From NCBI GenBank assembly GCA_052033915.1, contig JBPOJF010000013.1, positions 78,400-142,399 of the forward strand: a stretch of 64,000 bases of DNA. The letters run 5' to 3'. The DNA is from Lentisphaerota bacterium. GTDB lineage: Bacteria > Verrucomicrobiota > Kiritimatiellia > CAIQIC01 > JAGNIJ01. This document shows positions 24,451 to 59,230 of this stretch, in pieces. The notes under the pieces are model-generated. The model worked only from the letters and a program-made list of their open reading frames with translations. It did no database searches and was not told where the DNA came from. Every line of letters begins with the position of its first letter. The first letter of the stretch is position 1. The position numbers were made by a program, and so were the translations under genes.

Positions 24451-24500
24451 GTCCAAAGTCCAAGGTCCAAAAATACTCTGCCCTTTAGACTTTGGACTTC
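24451..24500. repeat. Copy 1 of the dispersed inverted-repeat element (GTCCAAAGTCCAAGGTCCAAA ... TAGACTTTGGACTTC)
   Basis: Seen directly between the HK stop (24504) and the DJ-1 start. Related copies at ~49505, ~53612 and ~59187. Confidence 0.5.
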
Positions 24501-24503
24501 TTC

Positions 24504-26201
24504 CTACTTCTTCCGCGCGTCGAGAATCGCGCGGACCTCGACGGCGAGCTTCTGACGGCTAAACGGTTTGGACAGGAATCGCGCGCTGGACACTTTCAGC
24601 AGGCGTTCCGCGGTCTTCGGCGTAAAGCCGGAAACAACCAGGATCGCGACCTTCGGGTTGATGCGCACGAGTTCACGGTAGACTTCCTCGCCATTCACGT
24701 ACGGCATGACAACATCCAACAGGACCAGGTCAATCTTCGACGCGTGCTGCTTGTACGTGTGGATGGCCTCTTCGCCGCCGGTCGCCGTCCAGACGGTGTA
24801 GCCGGACTTGTGCAGAAGCCGCTGGGTGATACTCAAGGCCAGCGGATCGTCGTCCACAACGAGAATCGTCTCCGTCCCGCCCGGTATGGCTTCGATATCG
24901 CGCTCTTCGACCACCACCGGCGTCTCCGGTTTGGCCGTTGGAATGTAGAGTCGGAAGCAGGCGCCGAGATTCTGCTCTGAATAAACCGTCACCCAACCGC
25001 CCATCGCGTGGATCATGTGCTGCACCACGCTGAGGCCCAGCCCCGTACCGGCTTTCTTGGTCGTGAAGAAGGGCTCAAAAATGTGTGGTTTGACGTCCTG
25101 CGCCATCCCCTGGCCGGTGTCGGTCACGGAAATGGTGATGTACGAGCCCGGCATGCGCTCCGGCCAGCGCTCGAGATCCTCCTGCTCCACCTTGACCAGG
25201 TCCACCTCGACGGAGAGGTTGCCGCCATCGGGCATCGCGTCCCGCGCGTTCAGGCAGAGGTTCAGCAGCGCGCGATACAGCACGACCGGGTCGGTGTGGA
25301 CCTTGGGCAGGGACGTCTTTTCGGGCGCGAACAGCGAGATGTTACGCGGAAGGGTCTTCTTCAGCATCGCGACCACGTCGTTCAGCACCACCTGGATATC
25401 CACGTTCTCCATCCGCGGCGCCGAGTGGCGCGTGACGGAAAGGAGACGACCCGTCAGTTCGTTGGCCGTTTGCGCGGCATCCAGAATCTTGGCGATGTCC
25501 TTCTGGAACGGCTGGCCGGCCATCTGGTCCTGAAGCAGCGATGCGTAGGCCATGATGACGGTCAGCAGGTTCTTGAATTCGTGGGCGATTCCGATGGAAA
25601 GGTTCTCGACCAGTTCCATCTGCTGGGATTGAAGAACCTGCTTTTCGAGAGAACGTTCGCGGGTAACGTCACGAGCCACGATCATGGACCCGATACGCCC
25701 GTCGTTCGAGTCGTTCAAAGGGGAGACCCGGACATCCAGCAACCGCGCGTGATGATCGTCGGAAAAGCAGGTTGCCTCGCCAACCCACACATCCTCTTTC
25801 TCCAACACCTTGGAGATGTCGCCGAATGACAATCCTCCCTGAAACTGAAAACAGCCGTCCAGTTCGACCGGCCGCTCCATGACCTTCCCGGGGTTCACAC
25901 CCAGCATACGGCCCATCGCGGCGTCCGCATAGATGATCTTGCCTTGCAAATCGGCAATCATCACTCCGTCATTGAGGAAATCGAGAGCTCGAAGAGGCAA
26001 GGACTTTTCGGGAGGCTGCGTATTGGGTGATTCTTTAGTCACATTCCCGCTCCGCTGCACAAACTGTTGCGCAGTTGTACGTCCCGCGACTGACGCTATT
26101 GATATGCCCAAAACGGCCAACCCGTAAAGGGCCCTCGGCCCCTTTCTTGTTCCGCCGCCTCGCAGCGACAGCGCGCGCGTTGATTGACACCATTCTGGCA
26201 C
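24504..26201 (-). CDS. Hybrid sensor histidine kinase / response regulator (PAS - HisKA - HATPase_c - REC)
   Basis: H-box 'IAHEFKNLLTVIMAYASLL', N/G boxes 'LNLCLNARDAM ... GTGLGLSVVQHMIHAMGG', REC 'ILVVDDDPLALS...DLVLLDVVMP...SKPF'. Exact start uncertain. Confidence 0.8.
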   Translation of the reverse strand: MPEWCQSTRALSLRGGGTRKGPRALYGLAVLGISIASVAGRTTAQQFVQRSGNVTKESPNTQPPEKSLPLRALDFLNDGVMIADLQGKIIYADAAMGRMLGVNPGKVMERPVELDGCFQFQGGLSFGDISKVLEKEDVWVGEATCFSDDHHARLLDVRVSPLNDSNDGRIGSMIVARDVTRERSLEKQVLQSQQMELVENLSIGIAHEFKNLLTVIMAYASLLQDQMAGQPFQKDIAKILDAAQTANELTGRLLSVTRHSAPRMENVDIQVVLNDVVAMLKKTLPRNISLFAPEKTSLPKVHTDPVVLYRALLNLCLNARDAMPDGGNLSVEVDLVKVEQEDLERWPERMPGSYITISVTDTGQGMAQDVKPHIFEPFFTTKKAGTGLGLSVVQHMIHAMGGWVTVYSEQNLGACFRLYIPTAKPETPVVVEERDIEAIPGGTETILVVDDDPLALSITQRLLHKSGYTVWTATGGEEAIHTYKQHASKIDLVLLDVVMPYVNGEEVYRELVRINPKVAILVVSGFTPKTAERLLKVSSARFLSKPFSRQKLAVEVRAILDARKK

Positions 26202-26269
26202 AGAGGTAATTTGAAAGGCAAGTTAATCGCTTTACGATTCGCAAACCGCCGTCATCGGGAGGCAAGGTC

Positions 26270-30766: not shown

Positions 30767-30924
30767 CCCGGCAAGACCTCATCTTCGCCGACAGGCTTGA
30801 AGGCCGATTTTTCCGCCAGGGCTGGCGACAGAGCTGAGTTCATCGCTTCAATGATTTCAGGAATTGTGCTGATTGAATAAGCGGTTGGACAAGTTCAGAT
30901 AAACCCGGTACACAGAACCATCAA

Positions 30925-31383
30925 ATGATGTATTCGTCAGATCCCTGGTACATGAATATCCCCGTGTGGGCGGGTGTCGCCGCATGGTTCGTTGCCCAGT
31001 TCATCAAGCTGTTCATCCACTTTGTCCGTCACCGCAGTTTCGATTCGGCCTTTCTTCTCCGGCTGGGCGGCATGCCCAGTTCCCATTCCGCGGCCGTCAG
31101 CGCAGTCGCCACATCCATCGGCCTGATTTGCGGTTTTGGAAGCTCGATTTTTGCGGTGGCTTTCTGCCTTGCGGTCATTGTGATGATCGACGCTCAGACC
31201 GTGCGCCGGGCGGCCGGCCAGCAGGCCCGCCTCGTGAACCAGATTGTGGACGAGCTGTTCAAGACCCATCGGTTTCCCCAGCACAAGCTTGCGGAACTGC
31301 TCGGTCACACCCGGCTGGAGGTTCTTCTGGGAATGCTGCTCGGAATCGTGGCCGCCTTGCTGGTGCATTCTTTTGCCCCGTAG
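30925..31383 (+). CDS. Divergent PAP2 family membrane protein (YuiD/DUF212-like)
   Basis: 152 aa, 4 TM helices, 'GGMPSSHSAAVSAVATSIG' and 'DAQTVRRAAGQQARLVNQIV' motifs of the divergent PAP2 family. Confidence 0.65.
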   Translation: MMYSSDPWYMNIPVWAGVAAWFVAQFIKLFIHFVRHRSFDSAFLLRLGGMPSSHSAAVSAVATSIGLICGFGSSIFAVAFCLAVIVMIDAQTVRRAAGQQARLVNQIVDELFKTHRFPQHKLAELLGHTRLEVLLGMLLGIVAALLVHSFAP

Positions 31384-35954: not shown

Positions 35955-35999
35955 GTGTAGTTCTTTAGATAGATCACAACAGATTGTAGGTTTGTGACG

Positions 36000-36292
36000 T
36001 GGACAAGTGCCCCCGCTCATGCGGGGGAGAATAGGGAATCGGGTGTGAATCCCGAGCGGTAGCGCCGCTGTGACGAGTGACGAACGCTTCATCAAGCCAC
36101 TGCTTCTTCGAGCGGTAAGGCGAAGCCAGTAGGAAGATCTCGAAGCCAGAAGACCTGCTTGTTCGCGCTCATCCGGTCCGGCGGCCTGAAGTCGCCGGCA
36201 ACTGTCTCGCCGAAGACAGGATGAGGGAAGAGACGAGCTTGACCCGTTGCCCGGCCCGCCTTCACTCCCTCGCGAGTGGTGGCGGTTTTTTC
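36000..36292 (+). promoter_or_regulatory. Cobalamin (B12) riboswitch with intrinsic-terminator expression platform
   Basis: Conserved blocks in the correct order: 'AGGGAA', 'GGTGTGAATCC', 'GCGGTAGCGCC', B12-box 'AAGCCACTGC', 'GCGGTAAGGCGAAGCC', 'CCAGAAGACCTGC'. Followed by the hairpin CCCGCCTTCACTCC...GAGTGGTGGCGG + TTTTTT at 36256..36292, 84 nt before the nrdD ATG. Confidence 0.7.
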
Positions 36293-36375
36293 TGTCCGTA
36301 CGCTGCGCGCGAGTGGTTTCCCTCAAGACGAACAAGCGGCTGGTTGCCGCAGAAACAGAGAGGAGACCGCTCGAC

Positions 36376-38541
36376 ATGCTTCACGAACGTTCCGACAGTT
36401 CGATCCCGCAGATTCAAAACACGCTGTCGCTGGCCGTCCGAAAACGGGATGGTCGCGTTGTGGCCTTCGACTCAGAGCGTATTCGACTCGCCATCGCCGC
36501 CGCCTTCAAGGCGGACCAAGGACTGACTCTCAACCAGCGCCTGCCAATCGACGCCGACACCGCCGTAGTTCAGATCACCGACGCGGTGGTGCAGTCTCTC
36601 GCCGCGCGATCCGCCAACGACGAGGCGCTGGAGATCGAGTCCATTCAAGACCTGGTCGAGAAACATCTCATGCAGTCGGGCCATCACCGCGTGGCCAAGC
36701 GCTACATCCTCTACCGGGAAGAGCGGCGAAAAGCGCGCTTCGCGCGCGACCTGGGCGAACCGCTGGTCGCCACGGTCACATCGATCGACGAGTACCTGAG
36801 CGCGGCCGACTGGCGGGTCAACGCCAACGCGAACCAAGGCTACTCCCTGGGCGGGTTGATCCTCAACATCTCGGGAAAAGTCACCGCCAATTACTGGTTG
36901 AATCACCTCTACGGCGGAGACATCGAACGCGCGCATCGGGACGGCGATTTCCATATCCACGACCTCGACATGCTGGCCGGCTACTGCGCCGGCTGGTCCC
37001 TGCGCCGGCTCCTGTTGGAAGGGCTCAACGGTGTGCCCAACAAGATCGAAGCGGCGCCGCCGAAGCACCTGAGAACCGCGCTGGGGCAGATGGTCAATTT
37101 CCTTGGAACCCTTCAGAACGAATGGGCCGGGGCGCAAGCGTTCAGTTCGGTGGACACCTATCTGGCGCCGTTCGTTCGCCGGGACGGGCTGACCTACGCC
37201 GAGGTGCGGCAGTGCTTCCAGGAGTTCGTCTACAACCTGAACGTCCCGTCGCGATGGGGAACGCAGACGCCGTTCACCAATCTGACTTTTGACTGGATGT
37301 GCCCCGCCGATCTGCGCGAGCAGCAGCCCGTCATTGCGGGCGAGTTGATGCCTTTCCTCTACGGCGACCTGCAGAAGGAGATGGACGACATCAATCGCGC
37401 GTTCCTCGAAGTGATGAACGCGGGCGACACCAAGGGCCGCATTTTCACCTTCCCGATTCCCACGTACAACATGACGGAGGATTTCGATTGGGAACATCCG
37501 AATACGGACCTTCTTTTTGAGATCACCGCGAAGTACGGCCTTCCGTATTTCCAGAACTTCGTCAACTCGGAGCTGAAACCGGGCATGGTGCGCTCCATGT
37601 GCTGCCGCCTGCAACTGGATCTGCGCGAACTCCTGAAGCGCGGCAATGGTCTTTTCGGCTCCGCCGAGCAGACCGGTTCGGTCGGCGTGGTCACGGTGAA
37701 CTGCGCCCGGCTGGGGTACCGGTTCAAGGGCGATTCGCAGGGACTGTTCGCCGAGTTGGATCGGCTGCTGGAACTGGCCAAGCGAAGCCTGGAGGTCAAG
37801 CGGCAAGTCATTGAGGAACGCATGAAGTCCGGTTTGTATCCGTTCACGCGCCGTTACCTCGGCACGCTTCGTAATCACTTCAGCACAATCGGAGTGAACG
37901 GCCTGAACGAATGCGTCCGCAATTTCACCGGCGATCGGGACGACATCTCCACACCGGAGGGGATCGCGCTCAGCCTCCGCATTCTGGACCACATCCGCGG
38001 CCGGCTGATCGGATACCAGCAGGAGACGGGACACCTCTACAACCTCGAAGCGACGCCGGCCGAGGGCGCGACCTATCGCTTTGCGCGGGAAGATCGCAAA
38101 CGCTTCCCCCGGATTCTCCAGGCGGGCGCCGAAGAGGCCCCGTACTACACGAACTCCTCCCAGTTGCCGGTCGGCCACACCGATGATCCGTTCTTCGCGC
38201 TGCAGCATCAGGAAGCGCTCCAACAGCGCTACACCGGCGGAACCGTCTTCCACCTCTACATGGGCGAACGGATCTCCAGCGCGCGCGCCTGCAAGGAGCT
38301 GGTTCGTCGCGCGATCACCCGGTTCCGCATTCCCTATATCACGGTGACCCCGACCTTCTCGATCTGCCCGCAGCATGGCTACCTGACCGGGGAACACGCC
38401 TTCTGCCCGAAATGCACCGATCACAAACAAGCCTGCGAAGTCTGGACGCGCGTGATGGGCTACTACCGTCCGGTCTCGCAATTCAACAGGGGCAAGCAGA
38501 GCGAATTCAAAGAGCGCCTGTTCTTTGCCGAGGCACCCTGA
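36376..38541 (+). CDS. nrdD: Anaerobic ribonucleoside-triphosphate reductase (class III RNR)
   Basis: 721 aa. C-terminal Zn-ribbon 'CPQHGY...CPKC' and glycyl-radical motif 'RVMGYYRPV'. Start is the internal M with an AGGAGA RBS. Confidence 0.85.
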   Translation: MLHERSDSSIPQIQNTLSLAVRKRDGRVVAFDSERIRLAIAAAFKADQGLTLNQRLPIDADTAVVQITDAVVQSLAARSANDEALEIESIQDLVEKHLMQSGHHRVAKRYILYREERRKARFARDLGEPLVATVTSIDEYLSAADWRVNANANQGYSLGGLILNISGKVTANYWLNHLYGGDIERAHRDGDFHIHDLDMLAGYCAGWSLRRLLLEGLNGVPNKIEAAPPKHLRTALGQMVNFLGTLQNEWAGAQAFSSVDTYLAPFVRRDGLTYAEVRQCFQEFVYNLNVPSRWGTQTPFTNLTFDWMCPADLREQQPVIAGELMPFLYGDLQKEMDDINRAFLEVMNAGDTKGRIFTFPIPTYNMTEDFDWEHPNTDLLFEITAKYGLPYFQNFVNSELKPGMVRSMCCRLQLDLRELLKRGNGLFGSAEQTGSVGVVTVNCARLGYRFKGDSQGLFAELDRLLELAKRSLEVKRQVIEERMKSGLYPFTRRYLGTLRNHFSTIGVNGLNECVRNFTGDRDDISTPEGIALSLRILDHIRGRLIGYQQETGHLYNLEATPAEGATYRFAREDRKRFPRILQAGAEEAPYYTNSSQLPVGHTDDPFFALQHQEALQQRYTGGTVFHLYMGERISSARACKELVRRAITRFRIPYITVTPTFSICPQHGYLTGEHAFCPKCTDHKQACEVWTRVMGYYRPVSQFNRGKQSEFKERLFFAEAP

Positions 38542-39197: not shown

Positions 39198-39775
39198 TTC
39201 TCAACGACCATCAGATCGCGCGCCTTGCCCGCCGTGGCATGATTCGTCCCTTTAGCGCCCAGCTTGTGCGCCGGCTCGATGGCCGGCCCATTCTGTCCTA
39301 CGGACTGTGCAGCTTCGGATATGACCTCCGCCTATCGCCCAAGGAATTTAAAGTCTTCCGCCATGTGCCGGGCAAAATTGTAAATCCAAAAGACTTCTCG
39401 CCGGCCAGCCTGGAGTTGACCAAGTTGCATCGCGACGACTACGGCAGCTTCTTCATCCTCCCCGGCCAAAGCTACGGGCTCGGGGTCGCCATCGAACGCC
39501 TGCATCTGCCCGAGAACGTCAGCGCGATCTGCTTGGGAAAGAGCACCTATGCCCGCTGCGGCATTATCGCCAACGTCACGCCGGCGGAAGCCGGGTGGCA
39601 GGGACATCTCACCCTGGAATTCTCCAACAGCAGTGCGGCGGATTGCCGCATCTATGCCGGCGAAGGCATTGTGCAAATGATTTTTCTACAGGGCGAACGA
39701 TGCAGGACCAGCTACTGCGCGCGGGAAGGAAAGTATCACCGGCAAGGCAATCACATCACCTTTCCGCGCGTATAG
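39194..39775 (+). CDS. dcd: dCTP deaminase
   Basis: 'MILNDHQI', 'GYDLRL', 'SYGLGV...LHLPENVSAICLGKSTYARCGI' dUTPase-fold motifs. GTG start overlapping the nrdG stop. Confidence 0.85.
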   Translation: MILNDHQIARLARRGMIRPFSAQLVRRLDGRPILSYGLCSFGYDLRLSPKEFKVFRHVPGKIVNPKDFSPASLELTKLHRDDYGSFFILPGQSYGLGVAIERLHLPENVSAICLGKSTYARCGIIANVTPAEAGWQGHLTLEFSNSSAADCRIYAGEGIVQMIFLQGERCRTSYCAREGKYHRQGNHITFPRV

Positions 39776-40018
39776 ATGAAGGCTTTGAATGACACCGTTT
39801 TTCCAGGATGACAGGAAAGGCCGTGAAAGCCGGCCACAGTCTCGCTGCGGTAACGAGCTACAACTCTCCATCCGTCTTGCACCCTGTTTGGCGCACGCGG
39901 AGCAAAGCCAATCGACGATCCCAATCGGCGGTGAAGGCGAGAGACGAGGCGAAATGTCACAGGCTCGGAGTCCGAACATCTGTCTTCCTGGCGCAAGAAG
40001 AAAAGGCCCATCGCCAGA

Positions 40019-42349
40019 ATGGAGACCATGGTGAAGAAACATATCCTGACACACAACCTCGGATATCCCCGCATAGGGGCGAAGCGCGAGTTGAAACGCG
40101 CCCTCGAATCCTATTGGAAGAAGACCCGCACGGAGACGCAACTCTTCGACACGGCAAAAGCCATTCGAAGAGCCAACTGGCTTTTTCAGAAACAGGCCGG
40201 GATCGATCTAATTCCGTCCAATGATTTCAGTCTCTATGATCAGATGCTCGACACCTGCGCGCTAGTCGGGGCAGTGCCGGAGCGGTTCCGGCAGGAGGCT
40301 GGCCCAGTCTCCCTGTCGACGTATTTCGCCATGGCGCGAGGGATCGATGGCGCGGGCGATCAAGCGTGTGATTCGAACCCTGCTTCGCCCTGCGCGCCCC
40401 TGGAAATGACCAAGTGGTTTGACACGAACTATCACTATCTCGTGCCGGAGTTGAGCCACGATCAACGCTTCCAGCTTGCATCGAGCAAGGTGTTCGATGA
40501 ATTCGCAGAAGCGCTAGATATGGGCATCCGCACCATGCCGGTACTTATCGGTCCGGTCACCTTCCTTTTGCTGGCCAAGACGCGCGGACCGCATTTCAAG
40601 CGGCTGTCAATCCTTCCGCACCTGCTCCCTGTCTACGCCAAAGTCCTGCGGCGCCTTTGCGATCAAGGGGCGGAGTGGGTACAGATGGACGAGCCGTGTC
40701 TCTGTCTCGACCTTGCCGAGGAGGATCTCGCCGGGATCACGACGGCCTATGAACAACTGAACCGAGCCGCTTCCGGATTGAAGATAATGGTGGCAACCTA
40801 CTTCGGGGACTTGCAGCACAACCTTGAGACAGCTTGCCGGCTGCCGGTGTCCTGCATCCATTTCGACGCGGTGCGAGCGCCTCACGAACTGGATCGGCTG
40901 CTCGAGTTGCTGCCGCCGACGATGCGATTGTCGCTTGGGGTTGTAGACGGCCGCAATGTCTGGCGAAATGACTTTGAACACTCACTGGCGCTACTGCGGA
41001 AGGCCATAGCCTCCATCGGCGAGGAACGCCTCTTGGTCGCGCCGTCATGCTCGCTGATTCATGCGCCGCTCAGCTTGAAGCAGGAAAGCAAGCTGGATGT
41101 GGAAATCAAGAGTTGGCTTTCATTCGCGGAGGAGAAGATCACCGAGGTCGTTCAACTTGCGCACCTCGCACGACAGAAGAAGGCTTCCTCCCGGTTATCC
41201 GGGAACCGCGAGGCCGTCACGCTTCGACTCAATAGCCCGCGCATTCACGATCCTGCCGTCAAGATGCGGACCGACGGCATATCTCCGGCTGCCCTGCAGA
41301 GACACAGCGCCTTCGCCATCCGGAAACCGAAACAGCAGGCGCGACTGAAGTTGCCGTCTTTTCCGACAACGACCATCGGTTCGTTTCCACAAACAGAGGT
41401 AGTCCGGACAGCCCGCGCCGATTTCAAGAAGGGGATTCTGTCACAGCAAGCGTACGAAGGGTTCCTCGAACAAAAGCTCGCCGAGTGTGTTCTGTGGCAG
41501 GAAGAGATTGGCCTTGACGTGTTAGTGCATGGCGAATTCGAACGGACCGACATGGTTGAGTATTTCGGGGAACAGCTTGCGGGTGTCGCATTGACGGAGA
41601 ACGGCTGGGTGCAAAGCTACGGTTCTCGTTGCGTGAAGCCGCCCATCCTATTCGGCGATGTCTCCCGTCCGAGGCCGATGACAGTCCGGTGGTCAAAATA
41701 CGCGCAGTCGTTGACGAAGAAACCTCTGAAAGGAATGCTGACCGGTCCACTTACGATCCTGCAATGGAGTTTCGTTCGCGACGACCAGCCGCGCAGCGAA
41801 ACCGCCAAACAGATTGCGCTTGCTCTGAGAGACGAGGTTCTCGACTTGGAGGCGGCCGGACTCCCGATCATTCAGATCGACGAGCCGGCTCTGCGCGAAG
41901 GACTGCCGCTTCGGCGCGCGGATTGGCGAAGCTATCTGGACTGGGCCGTCGACGCTTTCCGACTTGTGGCCGGCGGCGTCCAGGATGAGACGCAGATCCA
42001 CACCCATATGTGTTATTGTGAATTTGACGACGTCCTCGGCAGCATCGCTGCGCTCGACGCAGATGTGATCTCCATCGAAACATCGCGCTCCAACATGCAG
42101 TTGCTTGAAGCCTTCACAAGGTTCGATTATCCGAACGATATCGGGCCGGGCGTCTGGGACATTCACTCGCCACGCGTCCCATCCGTAGATGAAATGCTGG
42201 GCCTTATTCGTGCCGCCGCGAAGGTGATTCCAAGCGAGCGTCTATGGATCAATCCTGACTGCGGTTTGAAGACACGTCAATGGAACGAGGTGAAGGTGGC
42301 GTTGCAGAATCTCGTCGCCGCGGCGCAGAAGGCGAGAGCGGCAGTGTGA
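40019..42349 (+). CDS. metE: Cobalamin-independent methionine synthase
   Basis: 776 aa, '[20 protein letters not shown]' N-terminus, C-terminal Zn site 'HTHMCYCEF' and 'DCGLKTR'. Confidence 0.9.
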
Positions 42350-48590: not shown

Positions 48591-48612
48591 TATTGATAAT
48601 GCATTATCAATA
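48591..48612. promoter_or_regulatory. Fur/Zur-box-like perfect palindrome TATTGATAATGCATTATCAATA
   Basis: 22-bp perfect palindrome matching the Fur-box core GATAATGATAATCATTATC, 40 nt upstream of znuA (+) and ~150 nt upstream of the divergent minus-strand operon. Confidence 0.55.
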
Positions 48613-48651: not shown

Positions 48652-49560
48652 ATGAGGAAACGATGCGCATGGCTGCTGGCGGCATGGCTCGCGGGGCCGG
48701 CGGGGGCCGCGGAGGACCCGTTCCGGATCGTCACCTCGTTCTACCCGATTCACATCGCCGTTCTGAACGTGGCGCGAAACATCCCCGGCGTCGAAGTGAT
48801 CAACCTGACCCCTCCCGTCACCGGCTGCCTTCACGAGTACTCGATGACGCCGCAGGACCTCCGGACGCTGGCCCGGGCGGACGCGTTCGTGGTCAACGGG
48901 CTGGGCATGGAATCCTTCCTGGACGAGGCGGTGAAGCGCCTGCCGCGCCTGCGTGTCATCGACGCCAGTCGCGGCATCGAGCCCCTGGACGACAATCCCC
49001 ATGTCTGGGTCAGCGTCACGCTGGCCATCCAGCAGGTGCGGACCATCGCCGACGCCCTCGAGGAGTTCGACCCGGACCACGCAGAGCGCTATCGCGCGAA
49101 CGCGGACGCCTACATCGCGCAGTTGGACGCCCTGCGCCGAAAAATGCGTGAAGGATTGGACGGCGTGAAGAACCGCCACATCGTCACGCTCCACGAAGCC
49201 TTCCCGTACTTCGCGCAGGAGTTCGGCCTGCGCGTCATCGCCGTGATCGAGCGCGAGCCCGGCTCGGAGCCCGGCGCGCGCGAGCTGGCGCAAACGATCG
49301 ACCTCGTCAGGCAAACGGGCGCGCCCGCCCTGTTTGCCGAACCGCAATACCCGGCCAAGGCGATCGATACCATCGCCGCGGAAACCGGCGCGAAGGTGTA
49401 CACACTGGACCCGGCCGTGACCGGCCCGATGGAGCCGGGAGCGTATGTGGGGATCATGGAAACGAATTTGGAGACGTTGATAGCGGCGTTGAAGGAAGAA
49501 CCCCGTCCAAGGACCGAAGTCGAAAGTCCCAAGCAACCAACCTTGGACATGGGACTTTAG
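48652..49560 (+). CDS. znuA: Zinc/manganese ABC transporter substrate-binding protein (ZnuA/TroA family)
   Basis: Signal peptide, metal-site motifs 'GCLHEYSMTPQD', 'DDNPHVWVSV', 'TLHEAFPYFAQEF'. The last ~18 codons are encoded by a copy of the dispersed repeat. Confidence 0.8.
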   Translation: MRKRCAWLLAAWLAGPAGAAEDPFRIVTSFYPIHIAVLNVARNIPGVEVINLTPPVTGCLHEYSMTPQDLRTLARADAFVVNGLGMESFLDEAVKRLPRLRVIDASRGIEPLDDNPHVWVSVTLAIQQVRTIADALEEFDPDHAERYRANADAYIAQLDALRRKMREGLDGVKNRHIVTLHEAFPYFAQEFGLRVIAVIEREPGSEPGARELAQTIDLVRQTGAPALFAEPQYPAKAIDTIAAETGAKVYTLDPAVTGPMEPGAYVGIMETNLETLIAALKEEPRPRTEVESPKQPTLDMGL

Positions 49561-49578
49561 ACGTTGGACTTCGTGAGC
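49505..49578. repeat. Copy 2 (degenerate) of the dispersed inverted-repeat element, overlapping the znuA 3' end
   Basis: 'CCGTCCAAGGACCGAAGTCGAAAGTCCCAAGC...CCTTGGACATGGGACTTTAGACGTTGGACTTCG'. Confidence 0.4.
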
Positions 49579-49588: not shown

Positions 49589-50389
49589 ATGGACCACAAC
49601 ATCACATCCGGCCATGCCGGCGCGTGCTGCACGCGGATCGAAGACCTCGGCGTCCGCATCGGCAACTCGATCATCCTCGAGAACGTCGATCTCCATCTTC
49701 ATTGCGGACAGCTCATCGCGCTGATCGGTCCGAACGGCGCGGGCAAGACAACGCTCCTGCGCGCGATGCTGGGCGAACTGCCGCACTCCGGCAAACTGCA
49801 TTTCCTCCCGGTTCGCAAGACGGGCGGGGGACCCTCGCCGAGAATCGGCTACGTGCCCCAGAAGATCGAGATGGATCTCCTCGCGCCGATCACCGTGCGC
49901 GATCTATTCGCCGGCGCCGTCTCGCGCCGGCCGATCTGGCTGGGCTGCCGCCGGAAGAGCCTGAAAGGGTCCCTCGACATGCTGTCCGTCGTCGGCGCGG
50001 ACGAACTCCTCGAGAAGAAGCTGGGTCAGCTCTCCGGCGGACAACTCCAGCGCGTCCTCCTCGCGCTCGCGCTAACCCCTGTTCCGGACATTCTTCTCCT
50101 CGACGAGCCGGTCGCCGGCGTGGATCAGGCGGGCATCGAGATGTTCTACACGATGGTGTCTCAGTTCCGCCGCTCGTTCGACCTCGCCATCCTCCTGATC
50201 TCGCACGACCTGCCCGCCATCGCGCGCTTCGCGGATCGGATGGTCTTCCTGAACCGGCGAATCCTGGCCGACGGCACGCCGGCCGAGGTTCTGTCCAACC
50301 CGCGGGTCATTCAGACGTTCGGCTACGATTTCTCCGCCGCCGCCGGCCCGCCCGCCGCCGCGCCCGTCCACCATGGAGGCGCATCGTGA
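49589..50389 (+). CDS. znuC: Zinc ABC transporter ATP-binding protein
   Basis: Walker A 'GPNGAGKTT', signature 'LSGGQLQRVLLALAL', Walker B 'ILLLDEPVAGVD'. Confidence 0.8.
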   Translation: MDHNITSGHAGACCTRIEDLGVRIGNSIILENVDLHLHCGQLIALIGPNGAGKTTLLRAMLGELPHSGKLHFLPVRKTGGGPSPRIGYVPQKIEMDLLAPITVRDLFAGAVSRRPIWLGCRRKSLKGSLDMLSVVGADELLEKKLGQLSGGQLQRVLLALALTPVPDILLLDEPVAGVDQAGIEMFYTMVSQFRRSFDLAILLISHDLPAIARFADRMVFLNRRILADGTPAEVLSNPRVIQTFGYDFSAAAGPPAAAPVHHGGAS

Positions 50390-51219
50390 ACGCGTGGCAC
50401 GCCTGGATCGCGCAACTGCCGTTCGAGTGGGCGCAGTACGCGTTCATGCACAACGCCCTGCTGGCCCTCATCCTGCTCTCGCCGCTCTTCGCCCTGATCG
50501 GCTGCATGGTGATCAACAACCAGATGGCGTTCTTCTCCGAGGCCATCGGCCATGCCGCGCTGACCGGCATCGCGATCGGCGTCGTGGCCGGGATCGCCAA
50601 TCCGCTCTGGAGCATGATTCCCGTCGCCGTCCTCCTGGCCTTCGCCATCACCCTGCTGCGCCATTACAGCGCGGCGTCGGCCGACACGATCATCGGCCTC
50701 GTCATGGCGTTCGCCGTCGCGCTCGGCGTGGTGCTCCTTTCGCGCGGCGGGGGGTTCGCGAAGTATTCCCGCTACCTCATCGGCGATATCCTGACTATCG
50801 CCCCCGGCGAAATCGCCGGCGCCGCGATCCTGCTCGCCGGGATCGCCGGCATCTGGCTCGTCTTCTTCAACCGGATCGCGCTGACATTCCTGAACCGCCC
50901 GCTCGCGAGGAGCCGCGGCATCAACGTGTGGATGGTCGAAGGGCTGTTTGCGGCGGCCGTGGCGCTCGTCGTCACCGTCAGCATTCCGTGGATCGGCCTG
51001 CTGGTGATCAATTCCCTGCTGATCCTCCCGGCCGCCGCGGCCCGGAACCTGGCCCGCAACACGGCGCAGTACCACGCGATCGCGATCGCCGTCAGCCTCC
51101 TCTCCGGAATCCTCGGCCTGATCGGGTCGTACTACTGGAACACCGCCTCCGGCGCCACCGTGGTGCTCGTCGCCATGGGCTTCTTCATCCTGTCGCTCGC
51201 CGGCCGCATCGCGCGGTAG
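50386..51219 (+). CDS. znuB: Zinc ABC transporter permease (ABC-3)
   Basis: GTG start overlapping the znuC stop. 8 TM helices, 'AFFSEAIGHAALTGIAIG' ABC-3 motif. Lies inside the long track ORF 49624..51219. Confidence 0.75.
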   Translation: MNAWHAWIAQLPFEWAQYAFMHNALLALILLSPLFALIGCMVINNQMAFFSEAIGHAALTGIAIGVVAGIANPLWSMIPVAVLLAFAITLLRHYSAASADTIIGLVMAFAVALGVVLLSRGGGFAKYSRYLIGDILTIAPGEIAGAAILLAGIAGIWLVFFNRIALTFLNRPLARSRGINVWMVEGLFAAAVALVVTVSIPWIGLLVINSLLILPAAAARNLARNTAQYHAIAIAVSLLSGILGLIGSYYWNTASGATVVLVAMGFFILSLAGRIAR

Positions 51220-51380
51220 CCTCATCGGGACGGTTGAGCGCGTTCGCCGAACGCCCCGGAAAAAGTTTCCAAGGGTTGGAAAAATCGCCGAAAATTTTTC
51301 CAAGGTCAGGAAAAAACCCTCCTCGTTGCACCAAGAAGGGCTCGAAACCGCGCGGATGGCGTGATAGAAGCGTGTGCGAC

Positions 51381-52748
51381 ATGATCAACCATCCGTGCAT
51401 GTTATATAAAACGACTTATGTGCACAGGCGACATGCCGCCGTACGCACAACCGACTTCGTTTTCAACCAGTTGATTCCGTACATCGGAAACAAGCGTAAG
51501 TTGCTGGACCTCATTGCACAGGCCTTGAAGCACTCCACGAAGTCGGGGGTCCCGACTTTTCTGGACCTCTTCGCAGGCAGCGGTGTCGTGGCCCGTCTTG
51601 CCAAGACGCTGGGATATCGAGTCATCGCCAACGACTGGGAGCCATATGCGAAAGTGATAAACGGCTGCTACATCGGGAACAACACCCCGCCCGATTTCAA
51701 GGCGCTGGGCGGATACGAGAAGGCCCTGGCCCGCCTGAACGGCCTGCCTCCCCGCGTGGACTGGATTACCGATCACCTGTGCCCGCGAGACGACGAAAAC
51801 TACGACATTGAGGTGGATCGCATGTTCTACATGCGCAAGAACGGCATGCGGATCGATGCGATCCGCCACCGGATTCTCGAATGGCGCGATTCCGGCACTA
51901 TCGACGATAGTGAGCAGGACTGTCTGCTTGCCCCCTTGCTCTATCAGGCCTGCTACACGAGCAACACGAGCGGGGTATTCAAAGGATTCCACAATGGATG
52001 GGGCGGCCAGACCCGGACGGCGCTCTACCGCATCGCCGGCGACCTGCGCCTGACGCCGGCCGTGTTCTTCGACAACGGCCAGGACAACCAAGTGCTTTGC
52101 GACGACGCGCAACGCGTCGCCGAAGACCTGCGCGCCGACGAACTGGATGTGGTGTATCTTGACCCGCCGTACAATCAGCATCCCTACGGCAGCAACTATC
52201 ATGTGCTGAATACGATTGCGCTGTGGGATAAACCGGAACTGAGCCAGACGATTACACCCGGGACCAAATCGGCCATCCGCCGGGACTGGAGAGCCGAAAG
52301 GCGAAGCGCGTACAACCACGCCGACGAGGCGGCCGGAGCTTACGCGAAGCTTCTGCAAACACTCAACTCCCGTTTCATTCTGACAAGCTACAGCACCGAC
52401 GGCTTCATCCCCCTGGAGAAGATGCTGGAAGCCAACATCCGTCGCGGACATGTCCGCATCGAGATGAAGGGCTACAAGCGATATCGGGTCAGCTCGCAAC
52501 GGTTCTCCAACAAACCCATGAACGTCGAGTTTGTCGTTGTCCTCGACACGCACAGGGCATCCGACGTCTCGTTGGATGAACTCCATCGCTCGATTACGGC
52601 CAAGGAAGAATCTTTGCTGAACGGTCACAGGGAATACGCGATTCAGAAGCCGGCGCAACCGGCCCGGTTGGAAGGAGCCAGGGCGGCTCGCCTGCGGCGG
52701 GCGAGCCCGGAACGAGGCATAGCGTTATGCAAATCAGCCACAGCTTGA
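51381..52748 (+). CDS. D12-class (Dam-like) N6-adenine DNA methyltransferase, orphan
   Basis: N-terminal 'LIPYIGNKRKLL' (D12 motif X), motif I 'DLFAGSGVV', motif IV 'YLDPPYN'. ~455 aa with a long C-terminal region. No restriction endonuclease adjacent. 22-nt overlap with metF. Confidence 0.65.
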   Translation: MINHPCMLYKTTYVHRRHAAVRTTDFVFNQLIPYIGNKRKLLDLIAQALKHSTKSGVPTFLDLFAGSGVVARLAKTLGYRVIANDWEPYAKVINGCYIGNNTPPDFKALGGYEKALARLNGLPPRVDWITDHLCPRDDENYDIEVDRMFYMRKNGMRIDAIRHRILEWRDSGTIDDSEQDCLLAPLLYQACYTSNTSGVFKGFHNGWGGQTRTALYRIAGDLRLTPAVFFDNGQDNQVLCDDAQRVAEDLRADELDVVYLDPPYNQHPYGSNYHVLNTIALWDKPELSQTITPGTKSAIRRDWRAERRSAYNHADEAAGAYAKLLQTLNSRFILTSYSTDGFIPLEKMLEANIRRGHVRIEMKGYKRYRVSSQRFSNKPMNVEFVVVLDTHRASDVSLDELHRSITAKEESLLNGHREYAIQKPAQPARLEGARAARLRRASPERGIALCKSATA

Positions 52749-53611
52749 AAAACCGCAACCGGCCCCTGCTCTCCTTCGAGTTCTTCCCCCCGAAGGACGA
52801 GGCCGGGATGGACGCGCTGAAAAACGCCGCGGCAAAATTGCTTTCGGCGAAACCGGATTTCGTCACCGTGACGTACGGCGCGGGCGGCTCCACCCGGCAG
52901 AAGACGCTCGATATCTGCGGCATGCTGAACACCCTGGGCTTCACGGCCCTCATGCCGCACGTGACGTGCGTCGGCCACACCCGCGCGGAACTCGAGGACA
53001 TCGCGGACGAGATTCACCGCCGCGGCTTCCGGAACATCATGGCCCTGCGCGGCGATCCGCCGAAGGGCGAGACGGTGTTCCGGCCCGCGCCGGACGGCCT
53101 CGCGCACGCATCGGACCTGGTGAAGCTGATCCGGGCGAGGCACGACGACATCTGCTGCGGCGTCGCCGGCTATCCCGAGAAGCATCCTGAAGCCGCGTCG
53201 CTCGATGCGGACATCGCAAACTTGAAGATCAAGACCAATGCGGGCGCGGCCTTCGTCACGACCCAGCTCTTCTTCGACAACCGTTTCTACTTCGATTTCG
53301 TCGGCAAATGCCGCGCCGCGGGCATCCGGCAGCCGATCATCCCGGGGCTGATGCCGGCGCTGTCGTACAAGCAGATCCGCCGGTTCGTGTCCACGTGCGG
53401 CGCGAGCGTCCCGCCGGCCCTTTCCTCCGCGCTGGAACAAGCGGGCGACGACGCCGAGGCCGCATCCGCCGCCGGGATCCAATGGGTTGTGCGGCAGATC
53501 GACGACCTGCTGCGAAACGGCGTGCCCGGGATTCACCTCTACATCCTGAACCGCGCCAAGGTCGCGCTCGCGCCCGCGGTCACGGAATGCTTCGCGCGAT
53601 ATAGGGTCTAA
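52727..53611 (+). CDS. metF: Methylenetetrahydrofolate reductase
   Basis: 'LLSFEFFPPKDEAG', 'FVTVTYGAGGSTRQKT', 'ALRGDPP' MTHFR hallmarks. Confidence 0.85.
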   Translation: MQISHSLKNRNRPLLSFEFFPPKDEAGMDALKNAAAKLLSAKPDFVTVTYGAGGSTRQKTLDICGMLNTLGFTALMPHVTCVGHTRAELEDIADEIHRRGFRNIMALRGDPPKGETVFRPAPDGLAHASDLVKLIRARHDDICCGVAGYPEKHPEAASLDADIANLKIKTNAGAAFVTTQLFFDNRFYFDFVGKCRAAGIRQPIIPGLMPALSYKQIRRFVSTCGASVPPALSSALEQAGDDAEAASAAGIQWVVRQIDDLLRNGVPGIHLYILNRAKVALAPAVTECFARYRV

Positions 53612-53690
53612 TCCAAAGCCCAAAATCGAAAGTCCAATGTCCAAAGTCAGCGGAACGTGCTTAGGACTTTAGACCTTGGACTTACTCGTA
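53612..53690. repeat. Copy 3 of the dispersed inverted-repeat element (ATCCAAAGCCCAAAATCGAAAGTCCAATGTCCAAAGTC ... TTAGGACTTTAGACCTTGGACTTAC)
   Basis: Seen directly between the convergent metF and macB. Confidence 0.5.
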
Positions 53691-55658: not shown

Positions 55659-55663
55659 CGGGA

Positions 55664-56626
55664 CTACCGCGTCCTGCCCCGGCCGAACGGCGTGAACGGG
55701 CTCGTCTTCTCGTCACTGCCGCCGGGCGCCTGCACCTTCGGCGACAACACCGACTCGCCTTCCGCGAGGCCGCCGGCGATTTCAACATTCTTCCCGTCGG
55801 TCTTGCCGACGGCGACTTCGACGGACTTCCGTCCATTCGGATTTCGCGAATCGCGCTTCCACACCACCCGGCGCCCGTCCTCGTCATGCACCGTCTCCGC
55901 GGGAAGAATGAGCACATTCGTCGCCGTCACCGCGGTGAACACGACGCTGGCCGTCATACCGCTTCGCACGAAGCCGGGCATCTTCGCGGGAAGGACTTCC
56001 ACCTTGTAGATGGTCACGTTCTGAACCGTTTCCGCCTCATACGAGATCCGGCTGACCGCCGCGTCGAACCGCTCGTCGGGATACGCGTCCAGCGTCACCG
56101 TGACGGGCCGGCCCAGGGAGACCCGGGCGAGATCCGTTTCGTCCACCTGCGCTTCCACAATGAGCACGTCCGACATCACCAGCAGCGTGTCGCCGGCGCC
56201 CACGGTCTGACCGGGCTCGACGTCACGCGCGATGATCGTTCCGTCGAGCGGAGCGATGATCGGCGTGGCCTTGTAGATTTCCTGCCAGTGCGCAAGCGCC
56301 TCGGGCCCCCGCGCGCGGGCGGCATCCAGCAGCGCGGCGCGGTCGGTCGAACTCATCCACGCGATCGTCTGGCCCGCCTTGACCGGCTCCCCTTCCTGCA
56401 CCCGCACCTCCTCCATGCGCCCCGCGATCGGCGGCTTGATCTCAAGCCGGTTCCGGGGACGGACTTCTGCTGTGGATTGGACGGTCACTTCGATGTTTCC
56501 GCGCCCGACCGTGACGGCGCCGTAGGTCTGTTCCGCCCCGGTGTTTTTCTTCGCGCTCGACGTCCAGCAGGCATAGCCGGCGGCGAGTACGGCGAAAACC
56601 ACGATCCAGAATCCGAGTTTTTTCAT
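55664..56626 (-). CDS. macA: Periplasmic adaptor subunit (HlyD/MacA family)
   Basis: Signal anchor 'MKKLGFWIVVFAVLAAGYAC', lipoyl/beta-barrel motifs 'GEPVKAGQTIAWMSS', 'IIAPLDGTIIARDVEPGQTV'. Confidence 0.75.
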   Translation of the reverse strand: MKKLGFWIVVFAVLAAGYACWTSSAKKNTGAEQTYGAVTVGRGNIEVTVQSTAEVRPRNRLEIKPPIAGRMEEVRVQEGEPVKAGQTIAWMSSTDRAALLDAARARGPEALAHWQEIYKATPIIAPLDGTIIARDVEPGQTVGAGDTLLVMSDVLIVEAQVDETDLARVSLGRPVTVTLDAYPDERFDAAVSRISYEAETVQNVTIYKVEVLPAKMPGFVRSGMTASVVFTAVTATNVLILPAETVHDEDGRRVVWKRDSRNPNGRKSVEVAVGKTDGKNVEIAGGLAEGESVLSPKVQAPGGSDEKTSPFTPFGRGRTR

Positions 56627-56677
56627 AAACTGCCTCCGTTGCAGAAGCGCCTTCGAGACGCGGCACGGATGCCGCAT

Positions 56678-57955
56678 CTACCTTAATTCCGGTAAACGGC
56701 TTTTCCCCTGCGCTTTCTCCCAATTCGCCTCCGCGGTGACGGCATTCCGCCGTCCCGCGAGGTCGCTCTTTTGGCTGCCGATCAGGTCGTTTTCGATCCG
56801 ATCCCAGTCCTCGAACGAGATCATCCCCGACGCATACTGGCTTCGCCCGATCTCGGCGCGGACCTCCTCGGCTTCCAGGTAGGCCGCGTTCACCTCGGAC
56901 TGGTCAACCGCGTCGGCATAGTCGACCAGCGCCTTCTGAAGATTCGCCACGATCTCCGCGTCGGCCGCTCTCAGGACGGCTTCCGCCCGCGCCAGTTCCG
57001 CCCGCGCGCCGCGCACATTCATGACGTTCTTACCGCCCTGAAAGAATGGGAAGCTCATCGTCAGGCCCACGAACCACTCGTCCTGCTCGGGCATCCAGTC
57101 TTCGCCGTTCCGACCCGCCGAGGCCCTTGCCGCGATTTCGGGGAAATACCGGCTCTTCGCGGACTCCACGCCGGCCCGCGCGATCAGGAGTTGGGCCACG
57201 GCGCGCCTGTGCGCGGGCGTGTCGGCCGCCAGGGCTTCAAAATCCGCTTCGGTGTCCGGTTTTCCGGCTTCCAGCTTTCCAGCCGCTTCCACGCCTTCGC
57301 TTTCGCTGCGGCCCAGTACGCGGACCAGTTGCCGGCGCGCGACGGCGTGATACCGCTCCGCCTGCGCGACCCCGAACTCGGCGTCGCGCAAGGAGGCCTG
57401 CGTGAGAAGAAGAGCGCCCTTGTGTTCGCGGCCGCCCTCGTAACGAAGCTGAATCAGGTCCAGGTTCTCGGTGCGGCGTCTCGCGATCTCGCGCGCAAGC
57501 GTGACCTGCTCCTGCGCAAACAACAGGCCGGCAAACGCGGTTCGCACGTCGCCGCTGAGCGTCGCGCGGCGTTCGGCGAGGTCGGCCTCGACGGATTGAA
57601 GCCGCGCGGCGGCGGCGTCCACGGCGGCGCGGTTGCGTCCGCCCGTGTACAGGCTCTGGCTCGCGGAAACGCCGTACGACGCGCTGTCGCGCGTGGTGGA
57701 GCTTCCGTCTTCACCGGACTCCGCGCCGCTCCGGCTGCCGCCCGCGTTCGCCGACACCTGGGGCAGCAGATCGCCGTAGCTGGCCTTGTGGTCGTACCGG
57801 GCCTTCTCCGCGGCCGCCACCGCCGCCGCGAGGTCGGGGTTGTTCGCGGCCGCCTCTGCGAGACAGTCGTCGAGCGTCAGGGACCCTTCCGCGCCGGCCA
57901 GGGTTGCCATCGCAAGCAGACACGAGATCAACACGACGTGTTTCATAAAAAACAT
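56678..57955 (-). CDS. tolC: TolC family outer-membrane efflux protein
   Basis: Signal peptide, 'LTLDDCLAEAAANNPDLAAAVAAAEKA' TolC N-terminal repeat, and the two-repeat coiled-coil architecture. Confidence 0.8.
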   Translation of the reverse strand: MFFMKHVVLISCLLAMATLAGAEGSLTLDDCLAEAAANNPDLAAAVAAAEKARYDHKASYGDLLPQVSANAGGSRSGAESGEDGSSTTRDSASYGVSASQSLYTGGRNRAAVDAAAARLQSVEADLAERRATLSGDVRTAFAGLLFAQEQVTLAREIARRRTENLDLIQLRYEGGREHKGALLLTQASLRDAEFGVAQAERYHAVARRQLVRVLGRSESEGVEAAGKLEAGKPDTEADFEALAADTPAHRRAVAQLLIARAGVESAKSRYFPEIAARASAGRNGEDWMPEQDEWFVGLTMSFPFFQGGKNVMNVRGARAELARAEAVLRAADAEIVANLQKALVDYADAVDQSEVNAAYLEAEEVRAEIGRSQYASGMISFEDWDRIENDLIGSQKSDLAGRRNAVTAEANWEKAQGKSRLPELR

Positions 57956-58012
57956 CCGGATACTACCCCCGCCGCCGAAGCGGGTCGAGAAGGTTGTGCC
58001 TTCGCGGTTTCA

Positions 58013-59107
58013 TCACGAACAACGCGCGCGGGCCCCGTTTATTGCATGATGCCTGTACGTTTCTTGAAGAGCCCACTCCGCATGCTCCCGGATCAACGGA
58101 TCCGGATCGCGCGCGGCCGTCCGCAAAACCTCCAGCGACGATGAATCCCGCGCGTTTCCCAGGGCCACCGCCACATTTCTCAGCAGGCCGCTGCGCTTCG
58201 CGCGCAGGACGGGCGTTCCGGCGAACCGCTCGCGGAAACCGTCTTCGTCCAGCCCCATGAGGTCTGCGAGTTTGGGGGCACAGAGATGTTCATGAAAGCT
58301 CAGGAATCCGGCCGCCGCGCCGCTGAGGGAGACATTCAGGGTTCGGCGTGCGGCTGCATTCCGCGGGCAGGCCTGCTGGCATTCGTCGCAGCCGAAAATC
58401 CAATTGCCCATCTTCGGGCGAAGCTCTTCCGGAATGGCGCCGCGATGCTCGATCGTGAGATAGGACAGGCACTTCCGGGCATCCAGTCCATACGGTTCCA
58501 CCAGCGCGCCGGTCGGACAGCGCTGGAGACAGCGGGAGCAGTCGTTGCAGGAATGGCCAACTTCCAATTGGGAATGGGCCATTGAAGATTGGAAATCGAG
58601 CTTCGCGTCCAGAAGCACTTCTCCGAGGAACAGGTACGATCCGAAATCCGGATGAATCAAATTCGTGTTCTTTCCCAAAAACCCCAATCCCGCGTGCGCT
58701 GCTAAATCCCGCTCCAGGACCGGGCCGGTATCCACGTTCACGCGAACCCCGGCGCCCCGCCCCGTTTCCTCGCGCACGAAGGCCGCAAGCTCTTCCAGCA
58801 TCGGCCGCATCACGTCGTGGTAATCGCGGCCCCACGCGAAGCGCGAGATGCGGCCGCGTGTCGGATCGTTCCAAATCACCGGCGGCGGGTCCTGGACGAA
58901 GTAACTGAGCCCGCAGACGATGGCGGTTTGGGAGGAAGGGCGGACGCGGCGATCGACATCCTTCCCCATCCAGGTCATGCCGGCGGCGCGGCCGGAGTCC
59001 AGCCAGCGCCGGAACTCCCCGCCGCTCGCCGGTTGAGCAGACCCGACACGCGCCGTATCGAAACCAATGGCGGCCGCCTTCTCCAGAATCTTGTCCGTCA
59101 GGCTCAT
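58013..59107 (-). CDS. queG: Epoxyqueuosine reductase (tRNA-Q biosynthesis, 4Fe-4S + cobalamin-type fold)
   Basis: 'MSLTDKILEKAAAIGFD', 'CNDCSRCLQRCPTGAL' and 'CDECQQACPRN' twin ferredoxin motifs, C-terminal HEAT-like 'LIREHAEWALQ'. The track ORF's first 93 aa are an artefact. Confidence 0.8.
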   Translation of the reverse strand: MSLTDKILEKAAAIGFDTARVGSAQPASGGEFRRWLDSGRAAGMTWMGKDVDRRVRPSSQTAIVCGLSYFVQDPPPVIWNDPTRGRISRFAWGRDYHDVMRPMLEELAAFVREETGRGAGVRVNVDTGPVLERDLAAHAGLGFLGKNTNLIHPDFGSYLFLGEVLLDAKLDFQSSMAHSQLEVGHSCNDCSRCLQRCPTGALVEPYGLDARKCLSYLTIEHRGAIPEELRPKMGNWIFGCDECQQACPRNAAARRTLNVSLSGAAAGFLSFHEHLCAPKLADLMGLDEDGFRERFAGTPVLRAKRSGLLRNVAVALGNARDSSSLEVLRTAARDPDPLIREHAEWALQETYRHHAINGARARCS

Positions 59108-59186
59108 TGGCGTCTCGGCATTCCTGCCGGGCTGTGAAACGGCCGGCCTTCGCGCCGCCGCTTTTCCGTTTGTTGACGATGAAGCA

Positions 59187-59230
59187 GTCCAAGGTCCAAA
59201 GTGAAATGGCTTCCACCGACTTTGGACTTC
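59187..59230. repeat. Copy 4 of the dispersed inverted-repeat element (CAGTCCAAGGTCCAAAGTG ... CCGACTTTGGACTTC)
   Basis: Seen directly between queG and the AhpD-like gene. Confidence 0.5.

Follow-up and report, generated by a model that had tools for sequence, protein, structure and literature searches.

Hairpins with tandem GTCCAAR heptamer arms at gene 3′ ends in a Lentisphaerota bacterium and in several other bacterial phyla

What are the inverted repeats that recur at gene ends in the genome of a Lentisphaerota bacterium, and how do such elements come to lie there? The question arose from a stretch of 64,000 nt (GenBank assembly GCA_052033915.1, contig JBPOJF010000013.1, positions 78,400 to 142,399; hereafter the window), in which an initial annotation had placed four copies of a dispersed family at 24451-24500, 49505-49578, 53612-53690 and 59187-59230. 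Heptanucleotide repeats have been noted in cyanobacteria since 1990 and across bacteria since 2007. Here we find that all four copies are hairpins with arms of tandem GTCCAAR / YTTGGAC heptamers, that the same hairpin occurs in several phyla and on viral contigs, and that many other heptamers are arranged in the same architecture. From these comparisons we regard the hairpins, with moderate confidence, as transcript 3′-end stem-loops (putative bidirectional terminators, attenuators or stabilisers) that would change by slippage of whole units and whose arms would be kept matched at the DNA level.

Four heptamer-armed hairpins abut or overlap stop codons

Sequence reading confirmed the four copies (Table 1), with support from shuffled controls, repeat finders and RNA folding. 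Matches to the 10-mer GTCCAAAGTC with at most one mismatch numbered 15 in the window, against 3.56 +/- 1.89 in shuffled sequences, none of which reached 15 in 100 trials, and 13 of the 15 fell inside copies 1 to 4. The lone heptamer GTCCAAR was not enriched in the window (17 occurrences, 14.7 expected), indicating that the signal comes from units being both in tandem and inverted. A period of 7 was reported by Tandem Repeats Finder at 24450-24471 and 53612-53648, and a repeat finder reported the paired arms. The annotated description of tandem GTCCAAR arms around a variable loop was confirmed: units are in phase and the loops are mutually unrelated. The RNA folds of all four copies surpassed those of shuffled controls (z from -2.2 to -4.4), and those of orthologous hairpins gave z scores from -5.2 to -7.9. 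Copy 3 required a minor correction, as it begins at 53611 with the MTHFR stop codon TAA overlapping its first unit. Approximately 11 kb of further DNA of the same strain, beyond the window, contained no copy. Rfam at gathering thresholds returned nothing at the hairpins; its only matches in the window were two cobalamin riboswitches (RF00174; 117 and 36 bits), each directly 5′ of a large open reading frame (ORF; 36247-38541 and 40019-42349).

Table 1. Heptamer-armed hairpins and other features of the window
Feature	Position	Strand	Arms	Units, loop or remark	Fold
Copy 1	24451-24499		24451-24471 + 24484-24499	left GTCCAAA GTCCAAG GTCCAAA; loop ~12 nt; right TTTAGAC TTTGGAC	z -4.39
Copy 2	49505-49569		49505-49532 + 49542-49569	left GTCCAAG GACCGAA GTCGAAA GTCCCAA; right CTTGGAC ATGGGAC TTTAGAC GTTGGAC	z -2.24
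Copy 3	53611-53683		53611-53648 + 53658-53683	left (five) ATCCAAA GCCCAAA ATCGAAA GTCCAAT GTCCAAA; loop ~15 nt; right (three) TTAGGAC TTTAGAC CTTGGAC	z -3.39 (+), -3.81 (-)
Copy 4	59187-59230		59187-59203 + 59218-59227	left GTCCAAG GTCCAAA GTG; loop ~14 nt; right CCGAC TTTGGAC	z -2.53
znuA tail (last ~18 codons + stop)	49505-49560	+		encoded by copy 2; tail PRPRTEVESPKQPTLDMGL; stop TAG 49558-49560	
Fifth hairpin	22310-22424		46 nt each	GAATGAC / GTCATTC units	-52.6 kcal/mol, z -4.22
Classical bidirectional terminator	23378-23411			15-bp GC-rich stem with flanking A and T runs	
Cobalamin riboswitch	35988-36176	+			
Cobalamin riboswitch	39773-40001	+			
Perfect 22-nt palindrome	48591-48612			TATTGATAATGCATTATCAATA	
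D12-class N6-adenine DNA methyltransferase gene	51240-52748	+			

Pfam matches and ORF reading showed that each of the four copies adjoins or overlaps a stop codon, in agreement with their annotated placement at gene 3′ ends or between convergent or co-directional genes. Copy 1 lies 3 nt past the stop codon (24504-24506) of a minus-strand hybrid histidine kinase gene (PAS/HisKA/HATPase/receiver) and ~40 nt upstream of the start of a DJ-1/PfpI gene on the same strand. Copy 4 lies 5 nt past the stop codon (59233-59235) of a minus-strand gene of the carboxymuconolactone-decarboxylase (CMD) family and ~80 nt before queG, also on the minus strand. Copy 3 occupies the whole gap between the convergent MTHFR gene (+; stop 53609-53611) and a MacB-type ABC gene (-; stop 53682-53684), the latter stop abutting its last unit. 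Elsewhere in the window the same niche at 3′ ends is taken by plain GC-rich hairpins, such as the classical terminator between the convergent FAA-hydrolase and HU-like genes, indicating that this genome uses ordinary terminators as well.

Copy 2 overlaps the 3′ end of znuA and ends 19 nt before the start of znuC (49589). In the 330-residue ZnuA the Pfam domain extends to residue 306, and the last ~18 codons are read from the left arm, the loop and a stretch of the right arm; together with the ORF and a comparison of homologues, this boundary bears out the initial annotation, which had assigned the final codons of znuA to one of the copies. ZnuA homologues typically end in "...EKALK", and the clade of the window has tails such as SPKSKVQDPK, the in-frame reading of GTCCAAA. 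In relatives the znuA stop codon (TAA or TAG) sits in the hairpin loop; the corresponding codon in the window is CAA, so that the ORF continues to a TAG within the right-arm unit TTTAGAC and gains 8 residues. Copy 2 also contains a complementary double change (GTCCAAA to GTCCCAA and ATTGGAC to ATGGGAC) that preserves pairing. Upstream of the same gene, ~40 nt before the likely start of znuA (48652), a perfect 22-nt palindrome resembles a putative Zur/Fur-type operator.

Whole-unit change, taxonomic spread and other heptamers

Relatives of the window were located through their ZnuA homologues. At the znuA-znuC junction a GTCCAAR hairpin with 4 + 4 units was present in four relatives with 67-91% ZnuA identity (L122, L128, L129 and L125), the units varying among these loci and the window. 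In the gap between MTHFR and MacB a relative with 92% identity (L122) carries 4 + 4 units where the window has 5 + 3. A metagenome scan by MTHFR found one close relative, with a hairpin identical to that of L122, and more distant loci without synteny. At 64% ZnuA identity (L123) the left array alone was retained at znuA, and the MTHFR/MacB gap (15303-15392) contained a hairpin of another repeat, ACACGAA / TTTCGTGTN, with a period near 9 (-39.8 kcal/mol, z -6.5), standing where the GTCCAAR hairpin would be. In two Kiritimatiellae-like loci (L126 and L127) the end of ZnuA consists of GRQTTDD repeats, the coding DNA being a direct (GACGACA)n array without an inverted arm; these arrays lie at 3990-4011 in L126 and at 3850-3975 in L127, where there are at least 17 units. 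In a pair of Verrucomicrobia subdivision 3 loci (L014 and L059) 4 + 4 units were kept despite many substitutions. The second of these (L059, CAYYWB010000486.1) is orthologous to the first at 86% DNA identity and is binned as Bifidobacteriaceae, which is probably an error. Judged from these loci, the pattern is one of persistence at the site with whole-unit changes and occasional replacement, not of insertion and excision.

The interval between znuB (50386-51219) and MTHFR also differs among relatives. In the window it contains the D12-class methyltransferase gene, and in relatives with 91-92% identity (L122 and L130) it is reduced to ~97 nt; the gene looks like an inserted orphan methyltransferase.

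The initial annotation had taken the family to be probably specific to this lineage, to be checked by a pattern search of related genomes. When the pattern GTCCAARGTC-N5-35-GACYTTGGAC was scanned over species-representative genomes, at least 119 loci were found, against a chance expectation of ~67 matches in the 596-Gb collection under uniform composition. Among the matches listed, ~113 have at least two heptamers in each arm, indicating that they are not the product of chance. By record titles the matches listed comprise ~75 from Acidobacteriota (mostly Pyrinomonadaceae, Blastocatellia and Chloracidobacterium), 22 from Planctomycetota, 2-3 from Verrucomicrobia (subdivision 3), 3 from Chloroflexi and 2 from Gemmatimonadota, plus scattered matches in other taxa, some of which are simple 10-nt palindromes compatible with chance. 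These proportions do not represent abundances, and the labels of metagenome-assembled genomes (MAGs) are fallible, yet many independent bins agree. Another ~10 multi-unit copies lie on IMG/VR viral contigs, 2-6 nt past ORF ends. The hairpin is thus not confined to one lineage. A 34-kb viral contig (IMGVR_UViG_3300049983_000004; L219, L222) has four GTCCAAR hairpins located a few nt past ORF ends, with one exception in which the upstream ORF enters the left arm by 13 nt.

Across the retrieved loci the elements take the general form 5′-(GTCCAAR)n, loop, (YTTGGAC)m-3′ with about 2-5 units per arm, ~four being the commonest count. The unit logo, from ~800 units, reads G97 T96 C97 C84 A92 A94 with a variable seventh base. 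Stems span ~20-30 bp and loops 12-24 nt (median 20 nt), with a median element length of 73 nt. A called gene stop lay within -3 to +20 nt of the arm end for 60 of 132 GTCCAAR elements; element-to-stop distances peaked at -1 to +7, and convergent pairs often contacted both stops. Gene calls for these loci were crude (starts over-extended through the arrays and small genes missed), so that stop distances alone are reliable; with ORFs extending through the arrays, neither start-codon distances nor the divergent fraction can be trusted.

The arms have a strong orientation bias. A GTCCAAR-first hairpin reads alike on both strands, and a YTTGGAC-first hairpin is a distinct object. The GTCCAAR-first form prevailed 113:1 among the matches listed for the pattern used in ascertainment and 10:0 in unbiased loci, and matched scans of viral contigs favoured it ~10:1 (p = 0.012). 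In hairpins built on other units the A-rich arm was 5′ in 35 of 48 and not in 13 (p = 0.002). An element that is A-rich 5′ and U-rich 3′ on both strands has the appearance of a bidirectional terminator, and such a bias is not expected from symmetric slippage.

That other units exist was evident within the window, where a fifth hairpin is built on GAATGAC / GTCATTC. Its first unit holds the TGA stop of an RNase HII-family gene (21328-22314), and its far end closely precedes the FAA-hydrolase gene. This hairpin first suggested that the general feature is the architecture and not a particular unit. The retrieved loci contain 48 hairpins on 43 distinct non-GTCCAAR heptamers, for example AAGTGAC, CCTGAAA, AATCGTG, AATCCGC, GAAGGAT, CAGTAGG and AATGACC. 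A universal GTC core was considered and rejected, as many units lack GTC. In a Pyrinomonadaceae MAG (L104, JBOGOP010000003.1, 1-6500) 24 tRNA genes lie on one strand with a heptamer-armed hairpin in nearly every spacer, built on AGTTTCA, GAAGGAT, GGAGGCA, GCGGATT or GTCCAAA. Neighbouring hairpins differ in unit, and the two arms of any one hairpin match. Together with the unrelated loops in the window, this argues for local formation and homogenisation and against copying from a master element.

Relation to known repeat families

As originally defined, short tandemly repeated repetitive (STRR) sequences belong to heterocystous cyanobacteria and have the units CCCCAGT, TTGGTCA or CAACAGT. By their sequence features the GTCCAAR hairpins belong to the wider class of heptanucleotide-repeat hairpins represented by STRR, and they are new in unit and hosts: a 7-nt unit in tandem, dispersal near gene ends, inverted arrays able to fold and variation of unit number between orthologues are all present. 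In Calothrix, Nostoc and Anabaena, likewise, tandem 7-nt units are dispersed between genes, and inverted arrays fold between co-transcribed genes or after 3′ ends; STRR hairpins have been described from the hupS-hupL interval and close to the 3′ ends of genes, and roles in stability, coupling or termination have been proposed (PMC2670836, PMC4692102). The units GTCATTC of the fifth hairpin and GGTCATT of another locus (L121) resemble the Nostoc heptamer GAC(C/T)AAT, whose opposite-strand reading is GTCATTG (10.1101/2022.06.06.494920). The host here, however, is not a cyanobacterium, its nearest named ZnuA homologues being from Verrucomicrobia, Kiritimatiellae and Lentisphaerota, which suggests a bacterium of the PVC group, and the unit GTCCAAR is common to several phyla; the elements are thus of the same kind, not STRR in the strict sense. 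The tandem GTCCAAR unit was not found in the searched literature.

Similar features have been described for the heptamers GGGAATC of Xanthomonas and GGGGA(C/T)T of Nostoc, which are enriched in non-coding DNA and favour positions up to 50 bp past a stop codon (Rehm et al. 2015, PMC4692102). They are rare between divergent genes, vary in unit number between close relatives, have a mode of four units and in inverted form can make stem-loops (PMC4692102). GTCCAAR arrays also lie past stops with variable unit number and a four-unit mode. The G-rich units of Xanthomonas and Nostoc were read as G-quadruplex formers (PMC4692102), whereas GTCCAAR cannot form a quadruplex, so the preference for four units may not depend on quadruplexes. 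A single heptamer shared by distant phyla also has a precedent: direct repeats of TAACTGA occur in marine Beggiatoaceae, Cyanobacteria and Bacteroidetes without evident transfer (MacGregor 2015, PMC4679880). Both heptamers are intergenic and exact across phyla; TAACTGA, however, forms direct repeats (with one inverted case) mostly just upstream of starts, whereas GTCCAAR forms inverted pairs past stops.

A functional analogue of copy 2 may be seen in the stem-loops within operons of ABC importers, which follow binding-protein genes and set transporter stoichiometry (PMC9045158). These also lie between the binding-protein and translocator genes and have a long stem and a weak U-tract (PMC9045158). 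They are ordinary GC-rich hairpins of Clostridia and have been tested experimentally, whereas copy 2 is a partly translated heptamer array known from sequence.

Function and origin of the hairpins

We infer that the element is transcribed at a gene end and would there fold into a long stem-loop marking the transcript 3′ end, where it would serve as a terminator or attenuator for transcription from either side and hinder 3′ exonucleases. For znuA-znuC the predicted outcome is more mRNA for the binding protein than for the membrane and ATPase subunits. The hairpins would not be copies of one mobile sequence, and would instead form and evolve at their present sites as whole 7-nt units are gained or lost, the arms expanding until they reach the flanking stop codons and being kept complementary at the DNA level through inter-arm templating or selection. 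As in intrinsic terminators, the elements lie just past stop codons with their U-rich side 3′, and a role in termination or mRNA stabilisation like that of repetitive extragenic palindromic (REP) sequences is plausible by analogy.

A number of observations weigh against this reading. In canonical intrinsic terminators a short GC-rich stem with a small loop directly precedes a U-run, whereas here the stems are far longer and the loops larger. No U-run follows the stems (UAUCCCC after copy 1, UGCUUCA after copy 4), the 3′ arm being U-rich throughout, and a consensus terminator scan flagged the classical terminator of the window and none of the heptamer hairpins. Long regular stems could also be substrates of RNase III, which is a live alternative. 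In 53 co-directional cases sense and antisense folds were equally stable (27 versus 26, Wilcoxon p = 0.57) and G-U pairs were rare (~6%); there is thus no sign of RNA-specific selection, and the complementarity looks to be preserved on the DNA itself. With the crude gene calls of the retrieved loci, convergent, co-directional and divergent contexts occurred in baseline proportions. The direct arrays without an inverted arm in L123, L126 and L127 indicate that a hairpin is not always required at znuA, and copy 2 is largely translated, so that ribosomes would melt its hairpin. Finally, formation in place leaves by itself the recurrence of identical GTCCAAR units across phyla unexplained.

The equality of the two strands, the near-baseline context mix, the direct-only arrays and the filling of intergenic gaps up to the stops would all suit a neutral by-product, in which heptamer slippage and correction of near-palindromes would build and enlarge such structures at any non-coding site able to accept them, without effect on expression. 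Many bacterial genomes contain more heptamer repeats than expected, and polymerase slippage has been put forward as their source (Mrazek 2007, as cited in PMC4692102 and PMC4679880). Symmetric slippage does not predict the orientation bias, however, and several copies are kept on compact viral contigs; furthermore, across divergent relatives the hairpin persists at znuA-znuC and the one at MTHFR/MacB is replaced by a different hairpin. We therefore consider a purely neutral origin unlikely. The tight conservation of the unit across phyla and the common count of ~four units per arm could instead reflect an array of DNA or RNA binding sites, with the hairpin secondary, for a factor common to these phyla, such as a nucleoid protein or an RNA-binding protein reading GGA in UUUGGAC. 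Protein partners have been proposed for the Nostoc heptamers (10.1101/2022.06.06.494920), and S1, Csp or CsrA-like proteins for those of Beggiatoa (PMC4679880). Such an array of binding sites appears distinctly improbable, as at least 43 other units share the architecture in the same genomes, making one factor per unit unlikely, and the inverted copy, which is nearly always present, would hide single-stranded RNA sites; no candidate protein was identified. In a broader and similarly improbable version, a shared sequence-specific system would have left identical GTCCAAR as its footprint in Acidobacteriota, Planctomycetota, Verrucomicrobia and their phages; it could be a factor binding, cleaving or writing heptamer arrays, or a hairpin mobilised between phyla. 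If this were true, heptamer-armed hairpins would form a class of their own, dependent on a factor and serving transcript ends or genome maintenance, and would be no accident of slippage.

The initial annotation had compared the family with REPs and bacterial interspersed mosaic elements (BIMEs), non-autonomous elements whose dispersal would depend on a REP-associated tyrosine transposase (RAYT) or another single-strand transposase of that type, and this would explain a unit found in several phyla. Like REPs, the hairpins are dispersed, intergenic, fold-forming and located at 3′ ends and in operons, where mRNA stabilisation and termination have been proposed for REPs (PMC8266576, PMC2817692); copies are present on viral contigs; and in a Phycisphaerales MAG the hairpins lie inside a larger multi-copy repeat, suggesting that some carriers may mobilise them. 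REPs are palindromes 20-50 nt long that follow a conserved tetranucleotide, in most cases GTAG, and have a cognate RAYT (PMC8266576). A REP forms a small stem-loop by itself, and a BIME joins it to a second REP in inverted orientation. In contrast, each GTCCAAR arm is a direct heptamer array without an internal dyad, so that the hairpin needs both arms, and a logo of the 14 nt 5′ of 259 arms contained no conserved tetranucleotide; A at -1 (65%) alone stood out, and may be a remnant of a unit or a stop codon. The loops of different copies are unrelated, adjacent hairpins are built on different units, and orthologues have the hairpin at the same site and differ in unit number rather than in presence or absence. 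REPs occur by the hundred in a genome; the window has four GTCCAAR hairpins and the ~11 kb of further DNA of the strain none. The annotation had also raised the prospect of a cognate RAYT. A six-frame search for HUH and Y motifs in ~1.5 Mb of retrieved DNA, which holds ~130 elements, yielded one RAYT-like ORF in a relative (L125:1-271), and none beside any copy; the far side of this ORF is off the locus, and the readable ~400 nt contain no heptamer hairpin. Taken together, these data make a REP/BIME-type origin very unlikely, and the many units, unrelated loops and orthologous sites likewise point away from a mobile miniature element and towards local formation. A miniature inverted-repeat transposable element (MITE), which has a conserved internal sequence between terminal inverted repeats and a target-site duplication, was rejected for the window, as the loops of the four copies are unrelated, no flanking direct repeat was seen on reading and orthologues carry the hairpin at the same site.

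Two further observations concern mobile DNA in the retrieved loci. The RAYT-like ORF is partial, lies on the minus strand and has the IS200/RAYT-like motifs PDHLHL ... YMFLNPYRA. In the Phycisphaerales MAG (CSMAG_1437; L004, L037, L041, L061, L087, L099 and L103) the GTCCAAR hairpin forms the inner part of a longer repeat present in several copies, whose conserved flanks, GGTGGAACCCACCAACC... and ...GGTGGGTTGC, are not made of heptamers; the whole looks like a MITE-like composite element.

Three simply testable regularities emerge from the hairpins: arms that abut stop codons, A-rich 5′ and U-rich 3′ arms on both strands, and replacement of one hairpin by another at a single site. Repeat-encoded protein tails, as in ZnuA, matter for annotation. 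The heptamer-hairpin architecture, even with the same unit, extends to phyla of soil and freshwater that are hard to culture, and should these hairpins prove to be the chief sites of termination or processing in such genomes, the prediction of operons and 3′ untranslated regions must take them into account.

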